A stretch of 55,602 nt of DNA from a virus (lineage: Duplodnaviria > Heunggongvirae > Uroviricota > Caudoviricetes): positions 1-55,602 of the IMG/VR virus record IMGVR_UViG_2923286960_000003, one strand, 5' to 3'. The notes beneath the pieces are model-generated. The model saw nothing but the letters and a program-made list of their open reading frames with translations. It was not told where the DNA came from and made no database searches. The position numbers were made by a program, and so were the translations under genes. Below, piece by piece: positions 3,994-22,386 of the stretch. Every line of letters starts with the position of its first letter. Position 1 is the first letter of the stretch.

Positions 3994-4197
3994 TTACGGC
4001 GCTGTTTTTAATCCTGCCGGGATTTCGTTATTGTCCATGTGAATAACTTTATCGACCGGATAACAGTTGCCGGGAATTTTCTGTTCCGCTGCGGCAGCCA
4101 TGCATTCTTTCATTGAGTTGTACATGCCGGTGATTGCATCAAGCGACTCACCAGTATTGAGATGTACAGTCAGAATGAGTACGAATAATGTGTTCAT
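3994..4197 (-). CDS. small hypothetical protein with hydrophobic N-terminus
   Basis: 67-aa ORF directly downstream of dicB homolog; GGAGAG RBS; position matches ydfD slot of Qin-type prophages, identity not verified. Confidence 0.35.
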   Translation of the reverse strand: MNTLFVLILTVHLNTGESLDAITGMYNSMKECMAAAAEQKIPGNCYPVDKVIHMDNNEIPAGLKTAP

Positions 4198-4382
4198 CGC
4201 CACTCTCCGAAAATACCGAGTTTAAGAAGGGCAATTCTGGAGAGTATGGAATTGTCATTCAGCAGGTAGGGTTCATATTTTCTCATATTGATTGCATCCT
4301 CGGTGAAATCCCTGTTACTGAGCAGAACACCAATATTAAAGCACCCGTCAGACGTATTAACGTTTGGTAGTGACGTTTCCAT
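4194..4382 (-). CDS. dicB: DicB-like cell division inhibitor
   Basis: 62 aa; LPNVNTSDGCFNIGVLLSN..FTEDAINMRK matches my recollection of K-12 DicB (LPNVNTSEGCFEIGV...FTEDAINKRK). Confidence 0.75.
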   Translation of the reverse strand: METSLPNVNTSDGCFNIGVLLSNRDFTEDAINMRKYEPYLLNDNSILSRIALLKLGIFGEWR

Positions 4383-4392
4383 TATCGCGTCC

Positions 4393-4950
4393 TCAACAAT
4401 GAATTTTTAGCAATTGCTCCACAGTCATATTTTTAATTGCGCTCCGGTTTACAAGAGTCCATCCTTGTTTCTCCAGATAAAACCGGAAGGTATCCAGGGT
4501 GCAGACCATTGCGTCGTCAGGAACGGTTTCAGTGAATTTGATATTGCCGTGTTCGTCGAGACGGATAACCAGGGTGCGTCCGTCCCCGTGAATCATTTTG
4601 TCGGGAGACGGGGCGTTATTCTGGCGCAGTTCTGCTTCCATGCGGTCGAACTCAGCAATGTATGCCTCTTTAAATGCAGCGGCTTTTTTGCCAGTGAAGC
4701 CCATCACCAGGAAAACGAAGCCGTTTTTGGTGATTTGGTACATTGGGAGTTTGCGCCCGGTTGAGTCGGTGTATTCGCTTGACACAAAATTGTGCTCAGT
4801 GAATTTTGCTGAACAGTCCAGATTGCGAATTTTATCCAACACTCGTTCGTGGCGTTTGCCAAAGAACTCGGCGATCGCAACAGACGTAGTGACAGCGCGA
4901 CCATTTTCGATGGTTACGTCAGGGTGAGAAAGGGTAAGGATAGTAGCCAT
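4393..4950 (-). CDS. Rha family phage regulatory protein
   Basis: 185 aa from internal ATG (MATILTLSHPDV...); SVAIAEFFGKRHERVLDKIRNL motif typical of Phage_pRha; ORF-track upstream extension to 5247 judged non-coding. Confidence 0.65.
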   Translation of the reverse strand: MATILTLSHPDVTIENGRAVTTSVAIAEFFGKRHERVLDKIRNLDCSAKFTEHNFVSSEYTDSTGRKLPMYQITKNGFVFLVMGFTGKKAAAFKEAYIAEFDRMEAELRQNNAPSPDKMIHGDGRTLVIRLDEHGNIKFTETVPDDAMVCTLDTFRFYLEKQGWTLVNRSAIKNMTVEQLLKIHC

Positions 4951-5430
4951 GATGGCAGCCTCCGCGATGAATTTGATTAACTCACCACCGAGGTTTTCCA
5001 CGACCATAAGGGTGGTGAGACGTACAGGGGTGGAAATACCGGTCATCACGGAACCCGGCCAGCCTTGCGGCTGCCCTGCACGCCCCACCATAATGCGAAT
5101 GTGGCTGTGCTTAACGCATAAAAAAACCGCCTGAGCGCGGTTATGCGCCGTGAATGATTTCGGGTTTCCACGCCCGGCACCCGTTTTATGAGGTGCAGGT
5201 GCACTATAATTCCACCCGTTCTGGTTTTCAATAGCTACATTCAACATTTTCTCTACCTTTCATCACCGAAGTGAACTTTGTTGATGCGGTGCCTGGTGCC
5301 TCCAGGTGACGTTAACCAGTTAACAATTAACGTCGGATACAGAGCATTCCCGTTACGCCCGTAAAAGACCGCTTGTTTTAACTGTTCCGCGTGCGCTCAG
5401 CCGCATTCACCGCATCACAAAATTCACTTT

Positions 5431-5488
5431 AAAAACGGCGGCAGAGCAGTCACGGAGTAAAACTGATACCGCCAAACGTCACCAGAAA
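5431..5488 (-). ncRNA. dicF: DicF small regulatory RNA
   Basis: minus-strand sequence TTTCTGGTGACGTTTGGCGGTATCAGTTTTACTCCGTGACTGCTCTGCCGCC followed by T-run; matches remembered DicF with GGCGG/CCGCC terminator stem. Confidence 0.85.
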
Positions 5489-5822
5489 ATTGATAACAGA
5501 GGGCGTTGCAGCGGGGTTGTCACTTAAGCGTATGGTCAACCTGACAACCCGGTGTCCTCAACGGGGAAGGAATAACCCCGCCATACTTACCGCCGCGCCA
5601 TTTCGCGGATTGCCACAACCGGAAGCGCACGGTCGACGAAAATTTAACGACAGGCTATCTATGAACCAGCTACCTCGCCGAGCGCTTTCGCGTTATGGTC
5701 TGACTTTTCAGGGAAATATCCTTTCAGTAAACTGTCAGTGCCGGATGCTCACCCGTGTCCGGCGCACGCACTCCACCTCACCCGTGGAGAACTCCTTAAT
5801 CACCAACCCTCAGGAGGGTGAA

Positions 5823-6098
5823 ATGTCGACTGAAAATGATGAAATCATTAACTCCCTGATACGCCAGATTAATAATTTTGATAAAGCATTGCAGCATGCT
5901 GCGGCGCGTAGTGATATAACTCTTTTAGCAATTTCATTTCTTGCATCTGTTATGGATAAAAATGAAGTCGTACGACAGAGTCTTGTTGATTATATCGACT
6001 CGCTTCAACCCGGCACTTTCAATCATGAGAGCTTCAATCATGAGAAAGAGCATGTTAAGTCTGTAATTAATTCTCTTATTTTGAATCAAAAGAATTAA
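5823..6098 (+). CDS. hypothetical protein (91 aa), AT-rich
   Basis: strong RBS (caggagggtgaaATG); convergent with the early-left operon; contains FNHESFNHE tandem repeat. Confidence 0.35.
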   Translation: MSTENDEIINSLIRQINNFDKALQHAAARSDITLLAISFLASVMDKNEVVRQSLVDYIDSLQPGTFNHESFNHEKEHVKSVINSLILNQKN

Positions 6099-6396
6099 TG
6101 CTTTTTGTTGCAAAGTAATTTTCAAGGGGTTCTATTCGAATCCCTTTCTTTTTCATTAACAAGCCAAACCCCTTATCAATGATGTCCATTAGATCCAGGA
6201 AGTATTTTTCATGTAAATCCTGGTTATCAGAGAGCTGCTTCTCTTCGTACAGACCGATAAAGGCACGACGCACGTTACCGGATATAGTATCGATGGTTTC
6301 TTTTTCTACGGTACTCAGGTCAAGAGTCGCCAGTTGGGAACGAACTATATTCGCTGCCATTTCCTGGAATGGCATTGGTAAATCTTTAAATTCCAT
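6076..6396 (-). CDS. hypothetical protein (106 aa)
   Basis: ORF with GAGG RBS between ydfC-like gene and DicF; no recognisable motif. Confidence 0.4.
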   Translation of the reverse strand: MEFKDLPMPFQEMAANIVRSQLATLDLSTVEKETIDTISGNVRRAFIGLYEEKQLSDNQDLHEKYFLDLMDIIDKGFGLLMKKKGIRIEPLENYFATKSINSFDSK

Positions 6397-6418
6397 TATT
6401 AGCCTCGTTGGTTAGCTA

Positions 6419-6637
6419 TTAACGTGGGTATGTAACCATTCTGGCAATGCTTAATGCCGCTGCTTTTTCCAGCCTGGTGATATCCTGCTCCAGAGCGGAC
6501 AGATTTTCAGCCTGCTTAGTCCTGGCTTCATTGGCCCATTTCAGATCCTGCACTGCATTAATTTTCTGGCGCATCCACTCATAAAGTTCATCATCGGTAT
6601 AGTCTGGCGCGATGATGACGGGTTCTCGTTTCTGCAT
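6419..6637 (-). CDS. YdfC-like small protein
   Basis: 72 aa, GAGGA RBS, third small ORF of the ydfA-B-C-like series upstream of DicF as in Qin prophage; identity from synteny and size. Confidence 0.5.
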   Translation of the reverse strand: MQKREPVIIAPDYTDDELYEWMRQKINAVQDLKWANEARTKQAENLSALEQDITRLEKAAALSIARMVTYPR

Positions 6638-6666
6638 ACTGATTCCTCGCGGTGCTGTTTCGCTTA

Positions 6667-6795
6667 TCAGCCGTTAGATTTTCCCGAACTGGAAAGCGCC
6701 TGTTTAAATTCACTGAAGCTGAGAGCTTCTTCGCCTTCGGCAAGACCATCGAAGTATTCTTCGTAAGCCTTTTCCATGATTGTGTCGAAATCCAT
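6667..6795 (-). CDS. YdfB-like small protein (42 aa)
   Basis: hand-translated MDFDTIMEKAYEEYFDGLAEGEEALSFSEFKQALSSSGKSNG; start overlaps ydfA-like stop (coupled); not in ORF track because under 60 aa. Confidence 0.5.
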   Translation of the reverse strand: MDFDTIMEKAYEEYFDGLAEGEEALSFSEFKQALSSSGKSNG

Positions 6796-6796
6796 A

Positions 6797-6952
6797 TCAC
6801 TCACCTGAGTTTCTTTCCAGCCAGCGACGGGCACCATTTTCGGTTTTAAACGTTTTGCTTTTGGTATACGTCATCGCGGTGAATGTGCCGTCCTGGTTGG
6901 GAAACACGCCGTACACCAGAGATTCGTTGTTGCCAAGCTCGATAGTATCCAT
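6797..6952 (-). CDS. YdfA-like small protein (51 aa)
   Basis: hand-translated MDTIELGNNESLVYGVFPNQDGTFTAMTYTKSKTFKTENGARRWLERNSGE; first gene of leftward operon. Confidence 0.5.
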   Translation of the reverse strand: MDTIELGNNESLVYGVFPNQDGTFTAMTYTKSKTFKTENGARRWLERNSGE

Positions 6953-7148
6953 GCTGACCTCATTTCCCCTTAACGCCGGGTGGCGGAACTAAAACCTACA
7001 GCGCCGTGCTGTTCTTGATAGAAATATTAGTAACGCGGATATTTTAAGTCAACAGTATGGCGTATGATATTTTTGATTTGGTAACTATGTAAATGTTTTT
7101 TCAAGGGAAAAATATTAGTTATACAGCTGATTTGCAGAAGTTATGGCA

Positions 7149-7205: not shown

Positions 7206-7667
7206 CTACTGGTTACGTTTCTTTAGTGCCAGCATGTTCTCGAAGGCTTCCTCGTAGAGCTTGTTTAGTCCACGTAGCTGGTTAAGGAGTTTGGCTTTTT
7301 CTGACGCAGGTAGAATCTCGAAGAGGTTAAGTAACTCTGCCTGTTCTTCATTGACCAGCCTCCATCCTTTGCCTGAAAAGTTATCATCATAAGTATCTGA
7401 TGATCTTACATAATTCATTAAGTCTTTAAGGTCTTCTCGAATGTCCTCTGGTTTTACCTTTAACAGAGCCGCAAATTTTAGCGCAGCGTCGGTATTTACC
7501 GGTATCTTGCCGTTCAGATACTGGCTAACGGTGCCTTGAGATTCGAATCCCAACAACTCAGCCGCCAGCTCTTGAGTCAGCTTCAGCTCTTTTTTTCTTG
7601 CATTCCATGCGGCTTTTAAATTCTTGCTCGCTTCTGGAGTTGCAATCACTTCGCGTGTTTTTTTCAT
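7206..7667 (-). CDS. DicA/CI-like prophage repressor (HTH XRE N-terminus, no S24 peptidase)
   Basis: 153 aa; HTH LTQELAAELLGFESQGTVSQYLNG; C-terminal ELLNLFEILPASEKAKLL resembles remembered DicA C-terminus; divergent from cro-like gene. Confidence 0.7.
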   Translation of the reverse strand: MKKTREVIATPEASKNLKAAWNARKKELKLTQELAAELLGFESQGTVSQYLNGKIPVNTDAALKFAALLKVKPEDIREDLKDLMNYVRSSDTYDDNFSGKGWRLVNEEQAELLNLFEILPASEKAKLLNQLRGLNKLYEEAFENMLALKKRNQ

Positions 7668-14344: not shown

Positions 14345-14635
14345 CCTGGCCTGAAGCATTAACAACGGTAGGAATTGCGATGGCGGTGGCGCTGGTGGTG
14401 TATTCGATTTGCCGCTGGGGATAAAAACGGTTTGCGGGAAAAGGAGAGTTAAGTAGAATTGCAGCGGGTGCTTGAGGCTATCTGTCTCAGGCATGAACAC
14501 CAAAAGGCAGATAGAGAAAAGCCCCAGTTAACATTACGCGTCCGGCAAGACGCTTAACATTAATCTGAGGCCATATCTATGCTCTACACACGTAGGTTAG
14601 CCTCTTACGTGCCGAAAGGCAAGGAGAAGCAGGCT

Positions 14636-14791
14636 ATGAAGCAGCAAAAGGCGATGCTAATCGCCCTGATCGTCATCTGTTTAACCGTCATTGTGACGGC
14701 ACTGGTAACGAGGAAAGACCTCTGCGAGGTACGAATCCGAACCGGCCAGACGGAGGTCGCTGTCTTCACAGCTTACGAACCTGAGGAGTAA
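14636..14791 (+). CDS. hokD: Hok/Gef family membrane toxin
   Basis: 51 aa MKQQKAMLIALIVICLTVIVTALVTRKDLCEVRIRTGQTEVAVFTAYEPEE matches my memory of HokD/RelF; strong RBS aaggagaag. Confidence 0.85.
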   Translation: MKQQKAMLIALIVICLTVIVTALVTRKDLCEVRIRTGQTEVAVFTAYEPEE

Positions 14792-14956: not shown

Positions 14957-15607
14957 ATGAATGAAAATCAGTTAGCTCCTTGTTGGGAATTTCAACCTTA
15001 TCTTGCTGAAAACTATGTTCGCCACTTGTTGGCGGAGATCGCTAACGTACTTGAGCAGCTGTACTATCATAAGCACGCATTAGACAGCAACTGGTCTGAA
15101 GGTGTAAGGGCTTATGATTGGGTCAGAAATCATCTTATTCAAAATGAAGATGCAATTCCTGGCCTTGAGATGATTTCCAAGGGGTTGGACTATGTAGTTG
15201 CTTTAAATAAAGTTCCGCTACAATTTACCAAAGATTGCATTAATAACCCCAAAAAGAAACATCGTCTGCGTCGAAATAAAGTAGAGTATGAGCAGCTCTC
15301 ATTGTTTGGTGATGTTGAGGCTGAGCAAGATATTACATGGCGAGTCATAGCTGAGCCTTTTTTATCCGAAGAGGGCGATGGTGAATTAGAGTCCACACTG
15401 CCTCGTTGGGAGGTAGCTCTTGTTGGATTTAATACTTATGGTGCTCAGATTAGTATAGTTTCTCATCAATCTACAGCATCGATGCCGCTTATGCCTCTTG
15501 ATTATAACACACTCCCTGACGAAGCGGAGATTAATAAGGTGCCTCTTCGTCGGCGTACGAAGGATAAAGATTTGGATGTGAGCAGTGATGGAACATCAGG
15601 TGAATAA
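14957..15607 (+). CDS. hypothetical protein, cassette gene A (216 aa, no recognisable domain)
   Basis: AT-rich ORF; overlaps gene B start by about 20 nt; acidic C-terminal half. Confidence 0.6.
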   Translation: MNENQLAPCWEFQPYLAENYVRHLLAEIANVLEQLYYHKHALDSNWSEGVRAYDWVRNHLIQNEDAIPGLEMISKGLDYVVALNKVPLQFTKDCINNPKKKHRLRRNKVEYEQLSLFGDVEAEQDITWRVIAEPFLSEEGDGELESTLPRWEVALVGFNTYGAQISIVSHQSTASMPLMPLDYNTLPDEAEINKVPLRRRTKDKDLDVSSDGTSGE

Positions 15608-16691
15608 CTTCACTGAGTATCGGGGTGATAAGCTCAAACTAGCGAGAATGGCTGTTGGGCTTTCTTGTGAAGAGTTAGCCGAAAAAATTGGCAAGACAAA
15701 GCAATTCGTTAGCAAACTGGAGAAGGGGTGCAGGCCATCGGAGCAATGTCTTGAGTTAATATCTTCAGCGCTTATGATTAAGTCCAGTTTTCTTTTTACT
15801 GAACGAAAATACGCTCTGGAAAGTGATGTCTGCCATTTTCGGAGTAAGAAGTCCAGGACTCAAACGCTGACTAATAGTGTATTGGCCAGGGCTGAGATTC
15901 TTAATATTATAATTTCTGCTGTTGAAGGTGAAATCGAATTTCCTGACGTTAACATACCGGAGCACCCAGGGGCTGAATTACTTACTCCGAATGATATTGA
16001 GCGAGTGGCAGAAGATTGTCGCCGCGCCTGGAATTTAGGTCTTGGCCCTATATCATCAATGGTTAAATTGGCGGAGAGTTTAGGGGTAATCGTTGCGCAT
16101 GTTACGGGAGTCGATGATCGTGTTGATGCTTTTACTGTTCACAATAACAGGCCTGTTATCATCAGGAACAATGTTAAAAAAAGCATATGTAGATTTCGCT
16201 CTGATTTAGGTCATGAATTAGGGCATTTAGTAATGCATGAGGGCATAACGACAGGTGATAAACTTACGGAATCACAAGCCGATCACTTTTCGAGCGCCTT
16301 ATTAGTTCCCAGGTTATCTTTCATTAAAGAATTTCCACGAATACGAGGTAAGCAATTCGACTGGAATGCTCTGGTTGAATTTAAACTTAGATGGAAAATC
16401 AGCCTTAAAATGTGTATTTATCGAGCCAGCGCATTAGGCTTATTGACCCAGGAACAGGCAAGAACTGGCTATATGCATCTTAATTCCAGAGGGTATACGA
16501 GAGTTGAACCTGGTGATGAACTTTTGCGCCCTGAAGAACCCGGCATGCTGGCCGAGGCGATTGAAATGCTGGATGATGCAACCTGGCTAAGAATTCTTAT
16601 GAAAACTGGCTTGAGCCAAGATTTAATTCGTGAGTTGTTCTCCATCAACAGACCTATTACAAATCCAAGAAATATTTTCCAGATTGTTTGA
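15588..16691 (+). CDS. XRE-family HTH fused to ImmA/IrrE-type zinc metallopeptidase (COG2856-like), cassette gene B
   Basis: N-terminal HTH (LSCEELAEKIGKTKQFVSKLEKG); HEXXH motif DLGHELGHLVMHEG; 367 aa. Confidence 0.7.
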   Translation: MEHQVNNFTEYRGDKLKLARMAVGLSCEELAEKIGKTKQFVSKLEKGCRPSEQCLELISSALMIKSSFLFTERKYALESDVCHFRSKKSRTQTLTNSVLARAEILNIIISAVEGEIEFPDVNIPEHPGAELLTPNDIERVAEDCRRAWNLGLGPISSMVKLAESLGVIVAHVTGVDDRVDAFTVHNNRPVIIRNNVKKSICRFRSDLGHELGHLVMHEGITTGDKLTESQADHFSSALLVPRLSFIKEFPRIRGKQFDWNALVEFKLRWKISLKMCIYRASALGLLTQEQARTGYMHLNSRGYTRVEPGDELLRPEEPGMLAEAIEMLDDATWLRILMKTGLSQDLIRELFSINRPITNPRNIFQIV

Positions 16692-18414: not shown

Positions 18415-18789
18415 ATGCTCATAGATTTGGTTTTACCTTACCCGCCGACGGTGAACACTTACTGGCGACGCCGTGGCAGCACATATTTTATCTCGGAGGA
18501 GGGAAAGCGTTATCGCCGGGCTGTGGCGCTTATTGTTCGCCAGCAGCGGCTGAAATTAAGCCTGTCCGGAAGGCTGGCGATAAAGGTGATTGCAGAGCCA
18601 CCGGATAAGCGTCGTCGCGACCTGGACAATATCCTGAAAGCACCGCTGGATGCGCTGACGCATGCGGGAGTGTTAATGGACGATGAGCAGTTTGATGAAA
18701 TCAATATCGTTCGTGGTCAGCCAGTATCTGGTGGACGTATGGGGGTGAAGATTTACCCCATAATGCATGAAGAGCAGGTCAAAAAATGA
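18415..18789 (+). CDS. rusA: RusA Holliday junction resolvase
   Basis: 124 aa; LPYPPTVNTYW...DKRRRDLDNILKAPLDALTHAGVLMDD matches RusA signature. Confidence 0.85.
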   Translation: MLIDLVLPYPPTVNTYWRRRGSTYFISEEGKRYRRAVALIVRQQRLKLSLSGRLAIKVIAEPPDKRRRDLDNILKAPLDALTHAGVLMDDEQFDEINIVRGQPVSGGRMGVKIYPIMHEEQVKK

Positions 18790-19607
18790 AACTGGAAGAT
18801 TTACCGAAATACTACTCCCCAAAATCCCCTGGCCTGACCGATGCATCGGCCTCAACGTCAAAAGATGCGCTGAGTATCACTGATGTGATGGCCGCGCAGG
18901 GCATGACACAGAATCGGGCTGAGATGGGGTTTTCTGCGTTCCTGGGGAAAATGGGCATCAGTATGAATGACAGGGCGCGGGCAACAGAATTACTGGCAGA
19001 TTATGCACTCAGTCGGTGCGATCGTGTGGCGGCGTTGAGAAAACTTCCGGCAGAAATAAAACCGGTAGTGATGCGCATTATGGCTTCGTATGCGTTTGAA
19101 GATTATGCCCGTAGCGCGGCGAGCAAAAAACAGTGCCCCTGCTGTCACGGAAAAAAATTTATTGAAAGCGAGGTTTTTACAAACAAGATCCAGTATCCGG
19201 ATGGTAAGCCACCAGTGTGGGCAAAGTGCACAAAAGGCGTGTATCCGTCTTACTGGGAAGAATGGAAAAAAGTCAGGGAGGTGGTAAAAGTTGCCTGTCC
19301 GGAGTGTGGCGGAAAGGGTGAGGTTTCCACCGCCTGTAAGGATTGCCGTGGGCGTGGTGTCGCCATTCATCGTGAAGAGTCGGTAAAACGTGGTATGCCT
19401 GTTATCAGAGATTGCCAGCGTTGTGGTGGTCGTGGCTGTGAAAGGCTGCCATCAACGGAGGCATTTAATGCCATATGCAAAGTGACGAGTGCTATCACGC
19501 TTGATACGTGGAAAAAATCAGTGAAACGCTTTTACGATACGTTGGTGGTTCGGTTTGACATTGAAGAGGCATGGGCGGAGCGGCAGTTAAAGAGGGTAAC
19601 GCGATAG
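18786..19607 (+). CDS. late gene antitermination protein Q
   Basis: 273 aa, translationally coupled to rusA; multiple CxxC zinc-finger pairs; precedes terminator and late genes. Confidence 0.75.
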   Translation: MKLEDLPKYYSPKSPGLTDASASTSKDALSITDVMAAQGMTQNRAEMGFSAFLGKMGISMNDRARATELLADYALSRCDRVAALRKLPAEIKPVVMRIMASYAFEDYARSAASKKQCPCCHGKKFIESEVFTNKIQYPDGKPPVWAKCTKGVYPSYWEEWKKVREVVKVACPECGGKGEVSTACKDCRGRGVAIHREESVKRGMPVIRDCQRCGGRGCERLPSTEAFNAICKVTSAITLDTWKKSVKRFYDTLVVRFDIEEAWAERQLKRVTR

Positions 19608-20181: not shown

Positions 20182-21231
20182 ATGCTTAATACTGTAAAAA
20201 TATCCAGTTGTGAGTTAATCAACGCCGACTGCCTGGAATTTATCCGGTCGTTACCCGAAAATTCTGTTGACCTGATAGTCACGGACCCGCCGTACTTTAA
20301 AGTGAAGCCTGAGGGCTGGGATAACCAGTGGAAGGGCGACGATGATTACCTGAAGTGGCTGGACCAGTGTCTGGCGCAGTTCTGGCGGGTGCTGAAACCT
20401 GCCGGAAGTCTTTACCTGTTCTGTGGTCATCGCCTGGCATCTGATATCGAAATCATGATGCGTGAACGCTTCAGTGTGCTGAACCATATTATCTGGGCGA
20501 AGCCGTCCGGACGCTGGAACGGATGCAACAAGGAAAGCCTGCGGGCGTATTTCCCCGCCACAGAGCGCATTCTGTTCGCGGAACATTATCAGGGGCCGTA
20601 TCGTCCGAAAGATGCCGGGTATGCGGCGAAGGGCAGTGCACTGAAACAGCATGTGATGGCCCCGCTGATTTCTTACTTTCGTGATGCGCGCGCGGCCCTG
20701 GGGATAACGGCAAAACAGATTGCAGATGCCACAGGAAAGAAAAACATGGTGTCGCACTGGTTCAGTGCCAGTCAGTGGCAGCTACCGAACGAAAGCGATT
20801 ATCTGAAATTACAGTCGCTGTTTGCCCGGGTGGCAGAAGAGAAACATCAGCGCGGTGAACTGGAAAAGCCCCACCACCAGCTGGTGGATACGTATACGTC
20901 ACTGAACCGGCAGTATGTGGAGCTGCAGAGTGAATATAAGCATCTGCGGCGGTATTTTGGTGTGACGGCGCAGGTGCCGTACACGGATGTGTGGACACAT
21001 AAACCGGTGCAGTTCTATCCCGGGAAACATCCGTGCGAAAAACCGGCAGAAATGCTGCAGCAGATAATCAGCGCAAGCAGTCGTCCGGGTGACCTGGTTG
21101 CAGATTTTTTTATGGGCTCAGGTTCAACGGTAAAAGCTGCACTGGCGCTCGGGCGTCGTGCGATTGGCGTTGAACTGGAGACCGGACGTTTTGAGCAGAC
21201 AGTCAGGGAAGTTCAGGATTTAATCGTTTGA
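20182..21231 (+). CDS. DNA methyltransferase (N6-adenine/N4-cytosine type, beta class), orphan
   Basis: DPPY motif (VTDPPYF) near N-terminus and FxGxG SAM motif (DFFMGSGST) near C-terminus; no adjacent restriction gene. Confidence 0.85.
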   Translation: MLNTVKISSCELINADCLEFIRSLPENSVDLIVTDPPYFKVKPEGWDNQWKGDDDYLKWLDQCLAQFWRVLKPAGSLYLFCGHRLASDIEIMMRERFSVLNHIIWAKPSGRWNGCNKESLRAYFPATERILFAEHYQGPYRPKDAGYAAKGSALKQHVMAPLISYFRDARAALGITAKQIADATGKKNMVSHWFSASQWQLPNESDYLKLQSLFARVAEEKHQRGELEKPHHQLVDTYTSLNRQYVELQSEYKHLRRYFGVTAQVPYTDVWTHKPVQFYPGKHPCEKPAEMLQQIISASSRPGDLVADFFMGSGSTVKAALALGRRAIGVELETGRFEQTVREVQDLIV

Positions 21232-21280: not shown

Positions 21281-21356
21281 GGCCCTTTAGCTCAGTGGTG
21301 AGAGCGAGCGACTCATAATCGCCAGGTCGCTGGTTCAAATCCAGCAAGGGCCACCA
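21281..21356 (+). tRNA. tRNA with CAT anticodon (Met or Ile2/lysidine type)
   Basis: hand-folded cloverleaf: acceptor GGCCCTT/AAGGGCC, D-stem GCTC/GAGC, anticodon loop CTCATAA, T-stem GCTGG/CCAGC, encoded CCA. Confidence 0.8.
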
Positions 21357-21363
21357 TCACATA

Positions 21364-21440
21364 CCGCCATTAGCTCATCGGGATAGAGCGCCAGCCTTCG
21401 AAGCTGGCTGCGCGGGGTTCAAGTCCCCGATGGCGGTCCA
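21364..21440 (+). tRNA. tRNA-Arg (anticodon TCG by hand fold)
   Basis: acceptor CCGCCAT/ATGGCGG, D-arm TAGCTC...GAGC, anticodon loop CTTCGAA, T-stem CGGGG/CCCCG, CCA; C1-G72 and U73 are unusual. Confidence 0.65.
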
Positions 21441-21453
21441 TTATCTGTATCCT

Positions 21454-21510
21454 GCGTTGTTAGCTCAGCCGGACAGAGCAATTGCCTTCTAAGCAGCTGT
21501 GGTTGCACTC
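21454..21510 (+). pseudogene. 3'-truncated tRNA-Arg (TCT) remnant
   Basis: acceptor 5' half, D-arm and anticodon arm (loop CTTCTAA) intact, but no T-arm and no 3' acceptor complement downstream. Confidence 0.45.
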
Positions 21511-21696
21511 CTGTTGTTTCTGGTGGTGATGGTGGACTTCAGCAGCCGGATAATGTCGGTGCTGTCTGATGGTGTTTTGGTGGCGGGTGTGTGGTTGTTG
21601 CTTTCCCGTTGCTGAAAAAGAAAGCATCAGGCGATTAGCAGGGTATCAGTTACCCGTTGAAATTTTTAAATACCTCACAATTCCACAGCTTGATGA

Positions 21697-21893
21697 TTGT
21701 CTGGCTGCCGGAGAATTTGTTAAAAATTACATCGCATGGTGAATCCCCCTCAGCGGCGGGGCATCTGGCAAAGTGTATGATCCAGAGAACATGCAAATTC
21801 AGTAGACAGGCTGAATTTACCGGGAGGCCCCTGGCACCATGCGACAGACAGAAATTAGGCTATACTTCAGCCCCTCTCCGGAGGGGCTTTTCT
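21697..21893 (+). ncRNA. structured ncRNA-like element, copy 1
   Basis: promoter-like TTGTCT-17-TTAAAA, 8-bp closing helix GCATGGTG(21734)/CACCATGC(21835) enclosing several hairpins, then terminator agcccctctccggaggggcttttct. Confidence 0.4.
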
Positions 21894-22156
21894 GTGCAGG
21901 ATGTGTCACAGTTTCCTGAATTCTGAGTACTGTCCTGTTACTCAGGGTGCTATATTTTCTGACGTGATGAAAGTCTGCCGGAAGGCGGAACGTATCGGAA
22001 ATGACCCAGTAGAGAAAACGTTGACTCAGATACCGATGCTGAGTTACCGGGAAACCGGCATCACATGACCGCTATCCTTCCAGGCTCGCTCCGGCGGGCC
22101 TTTTTACTGCAGAAAACAGTTTTCCCGTAAAATGCCACGTTGCTCATAATTCAGGC

Positions 22157-22350
22157 TGGCGATTATTGTCTGGCCGGCGGGAAGTTTGTTAAAAAATTTC
22201 GCATGGTGAATCCCCCTGTGCGGAGGGGTAATCAGCGAGTAGGTATATGGGATAATCGCGGATTCAGGTGCTGGTACTGAATTCACCGGGAGGCACCCGG
22301 CACCATGCAATGGCACATAGCGCCACTCTCCAGCCCCTCTCCGGAGGGGC
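22157..22350 (+). ncRNA. structured ncRNA-like element, copy 2
   Basis: same architecture as copy 1 (closing helix 22192/22292; terminator 22324-22341); stems conserved, loop sequences diverged. Confidence 0.4.
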
Positions 22351-22386
22351 TGTTTATATTGATTTTGTCAGATGTGAGTAAACTGC

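Follow-up and report, generated by a model that had tools for sequence, protein, structure and literature searches.

A predicted RNA-gated antirepressor cassette between DicF and dicB in the early-left operon of an Escherichia coli lambdoid prophage

The C4 RNA of phage P1 is processed by RNase P, and Rho-dependent polarity operates in P1. The RNA of P4 and of phage N15 acts by terminating transcription prematurely, and the genes under its control serve replication or anti-immunity, the CA RNA/antA of N15 being a related immunity system. In P1, Ant synthesis is repressed by the c4 RNA (PMC8546580). In Gifsy-1, the small RNA (sRNA) IsrK has its own promoter and a leaky terminator; it switches on the downstream antirepressor and is required for induction (PMC4825925). 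Short repressors of the DicA type have also been described under antirepressor control (bioRxiv 10.1101/2023.04.14.536235). This work concerns a viral DNA of 55,602 nucleotides (nt), IMG/VR record IMGVR_UViG_2923286960_000003, which is here called the window as a whole. On its minus strand, a cassette composed of IsrK, a C4-type RNA and an antirepressor gene (ant) lies between the sRNA DicF and dicB, the gene of a cell-division inhibitor. The components are all of known kinds, represented by the Qin dicBF operon, P1 immI, Gifsy-1 isrK and P4 CI.

This cassette (cassette 2), which is absent from the Qin prophage of E. coli K-12, and the two genes that flank it are composed as follows, in the direction of minus-strand transcription.

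5436–5487, minus strand: sRNA DicF, which has a terminator of its own (Rfam RF00039, 72.5 bits, gathering score 48, E 4e-14).
4408–5271, block without strand: cassette 2, 864 bp missing from K-12 Qin (blastn breakpoints, junction sequences).
5203–5231, minus strand: PisrK-like promoter, TTGAAA-17-TATAGT (10/12 in the promoter scan), ending 7 nt before the IsrK 5′ end.
5120–5196, minus strand: IsrK sRNA (Rfam RF01394, 67.7 bits against 50, model positions 1–77 of 77), with an overlapping weak c4-a1b1 match.
5008–5095, minus strand: C4-type antisense RNA (Rfam RF01695, 81.9 bits against 45, model positions 1–87 of 87, E 1e-14).
4960–5001, minus strand: targets in the ant leader, b2 GUGGAAA (5001–4995) and a2 UCAUCGCGGAG (4970–4960).
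4393–4950, minus strand: ant, 185 amino acids (aa), antirepressor family (PF09669, E 5e-31, 107.6 bits against 29.9; TIGR02681, 108.7 bits against 45.95).
4194–4382, minus strand: dicB, 62 aa, cell-division inhibitor (PF05358, E 1e-32).

The Rfam matches had whole-window E-values of 1e-12 to 1e-14, and chance matches are therefore excluded. In IsrK, the b1 box GUGGAAA (5171–5165) occupies the loop of the second hairpin, the a1 box is UCAUUCACGG (5157–5148), and the terminator scan located an intrinsic terminator formed by a hairpin at 5142–5125 and a U-run. A gap of 24 nt, free of promoter-like sites, separates IsrK from C4. The minimum free energy fold of C4 (−47.3 kcal/mol) is consistent with the covariance model and presents the conserved long stem around two hairpins; the second loop is the a′ box, UUCCGUGAUGA (5053–5043), and the single strand after that hairpin carries the b′ box, UUUCCAC (5036–5030). 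In the leader, a2 overlaps the Shine-Dalgarno (SD) sequence of ant, GGAGG (4963–4959), which is 8 nt before the ATG at 4950. The ant stop codon precedes the dicB ATG by 10 nt, and the terminator scan found no terminator between the two genes. Relatives carry a differently spelled TTGATT-17-TACACT at the position of the PisrK-like site. Judged by its sequence, cassette 2 belongs to the P1 immI / Gifsy-1 isrK / P4 CI type of RNA-gated antirepressor modules and is autonomous.

An earlier note on this DNA had placed a Rha-family gene and a terminator between DicF and dicB. Both are there (for the gene, PF09669, E 1e-30), but the promoter-like site of IsrK, IsrK itself and C4 were overlooked, and with them the whole IsrK–C4–ant cassette, which is likewise absent from the public annotation. 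The second minus-strand hairpin, put at about 5126–5150, is real (5142–5125, with a T-run); it belongs, however, to a separate sRNA, IsrK, and is not merely a terminator after DicF. Since this terminator would form the 3′ end of a decoy or activator sRNA inside an RNA switch, it is not to be seen as an insulator between DicF and dicB. The distance between these two, given in the same note as 0.5 kb, is in fact 1,053 nt from the DicF 3′ end (5436) to the dicB ATG (4382).

The pairing of C4 with its two predicted partners was evaluated by energy and by covariation. The a′–a2 duplex has 11 bp and −19.3 kcal/mol, a value reached by 0.6% of shuffled boxes, and b′–b1 has −15.3 kcal/mol, reached by 2.2%. 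As only these two of the four duplexes beat shuffled boxes, the case rests on covariation. Over the whole 55.6-kb window, the arrangement of a b target followed by an a target occurs in IsrK and in the ant leader only. A three-phage alignment revealed three-way changes, in which a1 and a2 follow the changes of the a′ loop: the a′/a1/a2 set is UCCGUGAUGA in the window, UCUAUGUUGA in Salmonella phage sal3, and UCUUUGGUGA in mEp460 and Stx2a_1447. The b boxes of Gifsy-1 differ (UUGGCGU) and are alike in all three places.

A pattern scan of viral contigs provided 120 further loci, and the covariation set, drawn from the scan and from other loci, comprised 84 distinct modules, in which 32 different a′ loops and 16 b′ boxes are represented. 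For IsrK and C4, 91.8% of the cells were paired, against 62.7% after shuffling and 31–51% with slid partners; the covariation score was 0.648 against 0.176 for shuffled sets (reached by 0 of 500 shuffles), and compensatory changes were present in 15 of 16 pairs. The corresponding values for C4 and the leader were 77.2% against 59.7% and 40–54%, with a score of 0.321 against 0.135, which again none of 500 shuffles reached; alignment gaps around b2 lower this pairing value. The shuffle control leaves the relatedness of the modules in, while the slid-partner control removes it, and both agree. In addition, a match between box and flank was much more frequent in cognate than in non-cognate combinations: at b2, for example, 100% of the former and 20% of the latter had a run of at least 7. 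From these comparisons we regard the a/b pairing scheme as established for the family, and the module of the window as an intact member of it.

The order of elements corresponds to that of immI in P1 and P7 (c4-icd-ant1/2), as seen in a P1-like phage: an a1/b1 element with a terminator, C4, b2/a2 with a2 over the SD of the first open reading frame (ORF), and an antirepressor. IsrK is the equivalent of the P1 a1/b1 target element and of P4 seqA. The SD and the first ~12 codons of ant (MATILTLSHPD) are homologous to the icd start of the P1-like phage and to the P4 leader, which is 89% identical over 45 nt around the ant start. On the other hand, the window has no separate icd ORF between C4 and ant; the icd-like start is fused to a Rha-type antirepressor and, by this homology, the “icd” start appears to be used directly for the antirepressor. 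The Ant of P1 is a different protein, not of the Rha type, and its cassette belongs to a plasmid prophage under C1 control, while that of the window is in a lambdoid early-left operon.

With the Gifsy-1 isrK–orf45 (STnc1160)–anrP module, the window shares IsrK and C4-family RNAs in the same order and spacing, a and b boxes that co-vary in all three places, and an a2 box over the antirepressor SD. The proteins differ. The N-terminal ~105 aa of the window Ant form a Rha domain, whereas the N-domain of AnrP is ORF6N; only the C-terminal part (~75–80 aa) is weakly similar to the AnrP C-terminus (24% identity, E 0.001), so that AnrP is no orthologue. The same ~80 aa are unlike those of the mEp460-type relatives. 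Moreover, orf45 is a separate ORF of 45 codons that ends as ...TTATGA over the anrP ATG, whereas the frame of the window is fused in-frame to ant, and the Gifsy-1 module follows the late antiterminator Q, unlike that of the window, which is in the early-left operon. The P4 immunity region (seqA–CI RNA–seqC) likewise has, in this order, an IsrK-like element (60.8 bits), a C4-family RNA (74.9 bits) and a target that covers the first ORF's SD, but no Rha antirepressor follows.

The minus-strand locus is the early-left operon of the prophage, the counterpart of lambda PL and of the dicBF operon of K-12 Qin. Its remaining parts are listed below.

7206–7667, minus strand: prophage repressor, 153 aa, with Pfam HTH_3 alone and no S24 peptidase domain.
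7024–7093, minus strand: early-left promoter region similar to dicBp, with two sigma-70-like sites that overlap each other upstream of ydfA, a consensus match only.
6797–6952, minus strand: ydfA, 51 aa, DUF1391 (PF07151, E 7e-28), DNA 96% identical to K-12.
6667–6795, minus strand: ydfB, 42 aa (phrog_2061, E 7e-27; RefSeq annotation of the identical locus of strain NCTC86).
6419–6637, minus strand: ydfC, 72 aa (phrog_1744, E 3e-39; RefSeq annotation).
3994–4203, minus strand: ydfD-like gene, DUF1482, 69 aa, overlapping the end of dicB (PF07358, E 2e-19).

The order is thus repressor / dicBp–ydfABC–DicF–dicB–ydfD–exonuclease, with two mosaic cassettes in comparison with K-12. From ydfA to ydfD the genes and DicF lie on one strand, in Qin order and downstream of a divergent repressor/cro pair, as indicated by ORFs, Pfam and PHROG matches, the Rfam match of DicF and colinearity with K-12. 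The promoter scan resolved the dicBp-like region into TTTACA-18-TATCAT (10/12) and TTGACT-17-TAATAT (9/12). The sequence of positions 4194–6952 is present with 100% identity in E. coli NCTC86, in B-2207 and in two further genomes. The NCTC86 counterpart is a lambdoid prophage integrated beside ompW, with annotated int, xis, exonuclease gene, divergent repressor/cro pair and replication genes; a Q antiterminator gene was identified within the window (18786–19607). This prophage, unlike the cryptic Qin of K-12, appears complete.

The BLAST comparison with K-12 Qin resulted in three colinear blocks on the minus strand: 6990–6399 with ydfABC (96%), 5808–5272 with the ydfC–dicF spacer, DicF and the post-DicF spacer (94%), and 4407–3900 with dicB and ydfD (75%). 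DicF differs from that of K-12 by a single base. The K-12 coordinates are contiguous at both joints (3562/3563 at cassette 1), and the window therefore differs by two clean indels, namely cassette 1 (6398–5809, 590 bp) and cassette 2 (5271–4408, 864 bp). This bears out the reading of the earlier note, a remodelled Qin-type operon with ydfA/B/C-like genes, DicF and dicB on the minus strand, all of which were recovered in place by Pfam, PHROG and Rfam; the 106-aa gene and the convergent plus-strand 91-aa gene that it described between ydfC and DicF are likewise there (6396–6076, minus strand, and 5823–6098, plus strand). The DicF–dicB gap of the window contrasts with about 175 nt in K-12, and it holds a second terminator and a second promoter-like site. 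The motif AAA(A/G)TTCA stands on each side of cassette 2, and either insertion or deletion of the cassette through this short repeat would explain the junctions. The ant stop codon falls in sequence shared with K-12, directly before the dicB SD.

The repressor, too, distinguishes the window from Qin. It matches the NCBIfam DicA model weakly (35 bits, cutoff 101), and its BLASTP alignment with K-12 DicA covers the C-terminal 42 aa only, at 38% identity. Because of this limited alignment, the protein is predicted to have a DicA-like architecture with a different N-terminal domain and a different immunity specificity, making the prophage heteroimmune, without a DicA orthologue.

This arrangement is not rare among complete E. 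coli genomes. In a survey of 5,426 of them, the DicF–spacer–IsrK–C4 block (at least 80% of 5500–5000) was present in 384, the ant–dicB adjacency in 266, cassette 1 with both flanks in 197, and the whole 2,759-bp arrangement in 38. In the viral-contig sample, about 4% of the C4 modules have a DicF or dicB context. Elsewhere the module is found after cII in mEp460-, Stx2a_1447- and sal3-type phages, and after the late antiterminator Q in Gifsy-1. In a Rac-like prophage of E. coli OkiPb01693 (L129, 2990–4332), DicF, IsrK, C4 and ant are directly upstream of kilR, the Rac FtsZ inhibitor gene, and the viral contig L039 has the same DicF-containing block before kilR; in the contigs L019, L052, L075 and L109, IsrK–C4–ant adjoins kilR upstream, and no DicF was found there. 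With dicB here and kilR in Rac-like prophages, two unrelated division inhibitors thus have the module immediately upstream. The literature searched yielded no description of DicF together with IsrK, C4 or an antirepressor. Apparently undescribed in it are the position of the cassette between DicF and a division inhibitor, the icd-like start fused to a Rha-type antirepressor, and the recurrent misannotation considered below.

We propose that the cassette is an RNA-gated antirepressor switch, to which, taken as a whole, we give a probability of about 0.6. PisrK would produce IsrK, with most transcription ending at the IsrK terminator. Read-through from PisrK, and transcription from dicBp after derepression, would give a message from which C4 may be processed and which continues into ant, dicB and ydfD. 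The a′ loop and b′ tail of C4 would pair with a2 and b2 in the ant leader, so that the ant SD is occluded and ant is not translated. By analogy with P1, such an untranslated message may be prone to Rho-dependent polarity, limiting transcription into dicB. Free IsrK, which has the same b and a boxes, would compete for C4 or remodel the long transcript, as in Gifsy-1, and ant translation would then be switched on. Ant, with its Rha N-domain and AnrP-like C-domain, is expected to inactivate a short, DicA-type repressor that does not cleave itself, most plausibly that of the prophage itself; this role is suggested by the family annotation and by a repressor without a self-cleavage domain. If its own repressor is the target, dicBp would be derepressed and the switch reinforced by positive feedback.

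Tentatively, this can be extended to a self-reinforcing, SOS-independent induction switch, in which Ant would inactivate the own repressor, C4 polarity would block the division inhibitor, and one sRNA decision would release both; we hold this larger scheme to be possible, at odds clearly below even. If it is true, prophage derepression and host division arrest would be released together, through dicB here and through kilR in the Rac-like relatives.

Several observations weigh against the proposed switch. In the single sequence of the window, the a′–a1 (−13.8 kcal/mol) and b′–b2 (−10.2 kcal/mol) duplexes are no better than shuffled boxes. The Gifsy-1 study read IsrK as a direct activator acting via the upstream orf45 and not as a C4 decoy, and over-expression of the C4 equivalent did not relieve toxicity there (PMC4825925). 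The Ant C-domain of the window is accompanied by this type of repressor in 2 of 16 loci, many of the loci being too short to judge. Finally, the window has no separate orf45/icd ORF: the frame opened by the AUG inside C4 runs in-frame into ant, and a longer Ant isoform may exist. The tendency of this frame to stay open in relatives agrees with Gifsy-1, where the passage of ribosomes through “orf45” was found to matter.

How much of the cassette is coding is also at issue, since RefSeq annotates a single “Rha family regulatory protein” of 284 aa (5247–4393) with an N-terminal “Ash” domain, across IsrK and C4, whose matches would then be incidental. The frame is indeed open from 5247, PF10554 (Phage_ASH) matches residues 14–109, in the part over IsrK and C4, phrog_995 spans all 284 aa, and even longer ORFs of 383 aa are annotated in related phages; in 69% of the relatives, the frame that begins at the conserved AUG inside C4 stays open to the ant start, against 17% and 0% for the other frames. 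However, in comparison with three relatives, substitutions at codon positions 1/2/3 number 25/22/62 in the Rha domain and a flat 18/16/18 in the 246 nt upstream of the ATG at 4950. This pattern indicates that ant is under purifying selection, and the lack of codon-position bias over the RNA genes makes 4950 the most likely start. Upstream of it, the changes are concentrated in RNA loops and, at the level of RNA, compensate one another, and the ORF would have to hold a promoter-like site and an intrinsic terminator. Gifsy-1 reads the same conserved nucleotides in another frame, and Salmonella phage sal3 has a broken upstream frame. PF10554 also matches an obsolete “cI protein” coding sequence of P4 (L130, 569–985, minus strand) exactly over the C4-family CI RNA. 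In RNA-seq/Ribo-seq data of enterohaemorrhagic E. coli EDL933, a C4 RNA belonged to the most abundant RNAs, and its ribosome coverage was very low, at 0.06 (PMC5331693). We consider it very improbable that RefSeq is correct here; the 284-aa ORF is probably an annotation artefact, PF10554 probably models translated non-coding RNA genes (C4/CI), and the “Rha family” ORFs of 284–383 aa in RefSeq probably inherit this error. In mEp460- and Stx2a-type phages (in mEp460, L006, 2141–2500), the annotated antirepressor ORF reaches ~360 nt further upstream of IsrK; since sal3 has a separate ORF with a broken frame in place of this part, it too may be non-coding leader.

Two other explanations accept the RNAs and differ from the proposed switch in what they do. 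Following the P4/N15 logic, the main effect of C4 would be premature termination, in the leader or at the IsrK terminator, and not a block of ant translation. P4 has the same layout of an IsrK-like element (seqA) and a C4-family RNA (CI), the Gifsy-1 authors raise the possibility (PMC4825925), and the IsrK–C4 pairing is better conserved than that of C4 with the leader (91.8% vs 77.2%). In addition, the conserved GGUGGUGAG just after b2 (about 4989–4981 of the window) is complementary to CUCACCACC, the 3′ strand of the C4 closing stem, which allows alternative structures, among them a long-range one in the unprocessed transcript that probably corresponds to the “structure A/B” switch of Gifsy-1. 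Yet in the window, as in Gifsy-1, mEp460-type phages and the P1-like phage, a2 is placed precisely on the ant SD, as a translational block needs, and the terminator scan found no terminator-like hairpin between C4 and ant. Termination as the main effect is thus judged rather unlikely, although both modes of action are not mutually exclusive. The cassette might instead be an inert mosaic remnant, brought by recombination and without present regulatory role, as lambdoid early-left regions are highly mosaic, the cassette occupies quite different sites elsewhere (after cII in mEp460-type phages, after Q in Gifsy-1) and K-12 Qin is devoid of it. Against this, every part is full length with intact cognate boxes, ant shows the purifying selection noted above, the block is 99–100% conserved in several lineages and spread over the 384 genomes already counted, and two prophage families have it directly in front of a division inhibitor, so that we give this explanation little credit.

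Beyond cassette 2, the operon differs from K-12 Qin by cassette 1, with the following features.

5809–6398, block without strand: cassette 1, 590 bp missing from K-12 Qin (blastn breakpoints), AT-rich with 35–41% G+C (composition profile).
6076–6396, minus strand: 106-aa gene (phrog_6937, E 1e-68).
5823–6098, plus strand: convergent 91-aa orphan gene with the SD AGGAGGGTGAA before its ATG; 23 nt of its 3′ end are shared with the 106-aa gene.
6124–6146, plus strand: terminator-like hairpin with T-run (terminator scan), 26 nt past the stop codon of the 91-aa ORF.

The 106-aa protein has 234 homologous clusters in Escherichia and Salmonella; in the alignment of these relatives the N-terminal ~53 aa are conserved and the C-termini are variable or swapped. 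Searches in Pfam, NCBIfam and PADLOC gave nothing useful on its function. The 91-aa protein has 15 clusters only, every one from E. coli, among 5.8 billion proteins, and it matched nothing in Pfam, PHROG, NCBIfam and PADLOC. Its relatives at 76–79% identity present in-frame indels and conservative substitutions. The strong SD, the downstream terminator-like hairpin and these in-frame indels make it probable that the 91-aa ORF is a real gene. On the plus strand, the 330 nt upstream of it hold no sigma-70 match of at least 9/12; if the ORF is transcribed, its RNA would be antisense to the 3′ end of the 106-aa gene. The AlphaFold2 models are a helical bundle for the 106-aa protein and a four-helix protein for the 91-aa protein, with predicted local distance difference test (pLDDT) values of 68 and 67, and neither had a Foldseek match at E ≤ 0.001 in PDB and BFVD. 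Cassette 1 can only be called an AT-rich, moron-like pair of small genes.

A structured element similar to STnc100/PasD was found between DicF and cassette 2.

5277–5424, minus strand: structured spacer of the DicF–dicB region (Rfam RF02076, sub-threshold at 38 bits, gathering score 47), including CACCUGGAGGCACCAGGCACC.

In the alignment this element is also present in K-12 Qin, and it is therefore not part of the remodelling. In the ban operon of P7/D6, the spacer that follows the tRNA genes is ~80% identical to it. A role of 5424–5277 as an RNA antiterminator of the HK022 put type was considered and rejected, as the PL/PR region of HK022 has no STnc100 match even at E 10. On the plus strand of the window, 21281–22361 contains two tRNA genes and then two tandem full-length copies of the STnc100 sRNA (138 and 132 bits); the genes of the Q antiterminator and of a DNA methylase are located upstream of this stretch.

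Control of the cassette by the SOS response was dropped. No LexA box was found near cassette 2, and the best LexA-box-like site of the window (20190–20209, plus strand; TACTGTAAAAATATCCAGTT, 16/20 to the consensus) heads the methylase gene (20182–21231), at its very start, and not an antirepressor. Other plus-strand loci include a toxin-antitoxin locus of the hok/sok type at 14466–14791 (sok RNA of 117 bits, Hok-like ORF of 70 aa) and, at 14957–16691, a 216-aa ORF without family match that overlaps the start of a 368-aa protein with HTH and Peptidase_M78 domains (ImmA/IrrE-like). The latter two may represent an anti-repressor of the protease type or else a defence pair.

DicF and DicB are investigated as prophage products that affect the host, and K-12 Qin is the usual model for discussing how they are controlled. 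In about 5–7% of complete E. coli genomes, DicF and dicB are separated by a full predicted RNA switch, with its own predicted promoter, and by an antirepressor gene. In such strains the expression of dicB, the DicF-to-DicB stoichiometry and prophage induction may obey different rules. In the same genomes RefSeq calls a 284-aa protein across two sRNA genes. For the family, the many co-varying types of a/b boxes look like specificity (heteroimmunity) classes, which would be typable from sequence.

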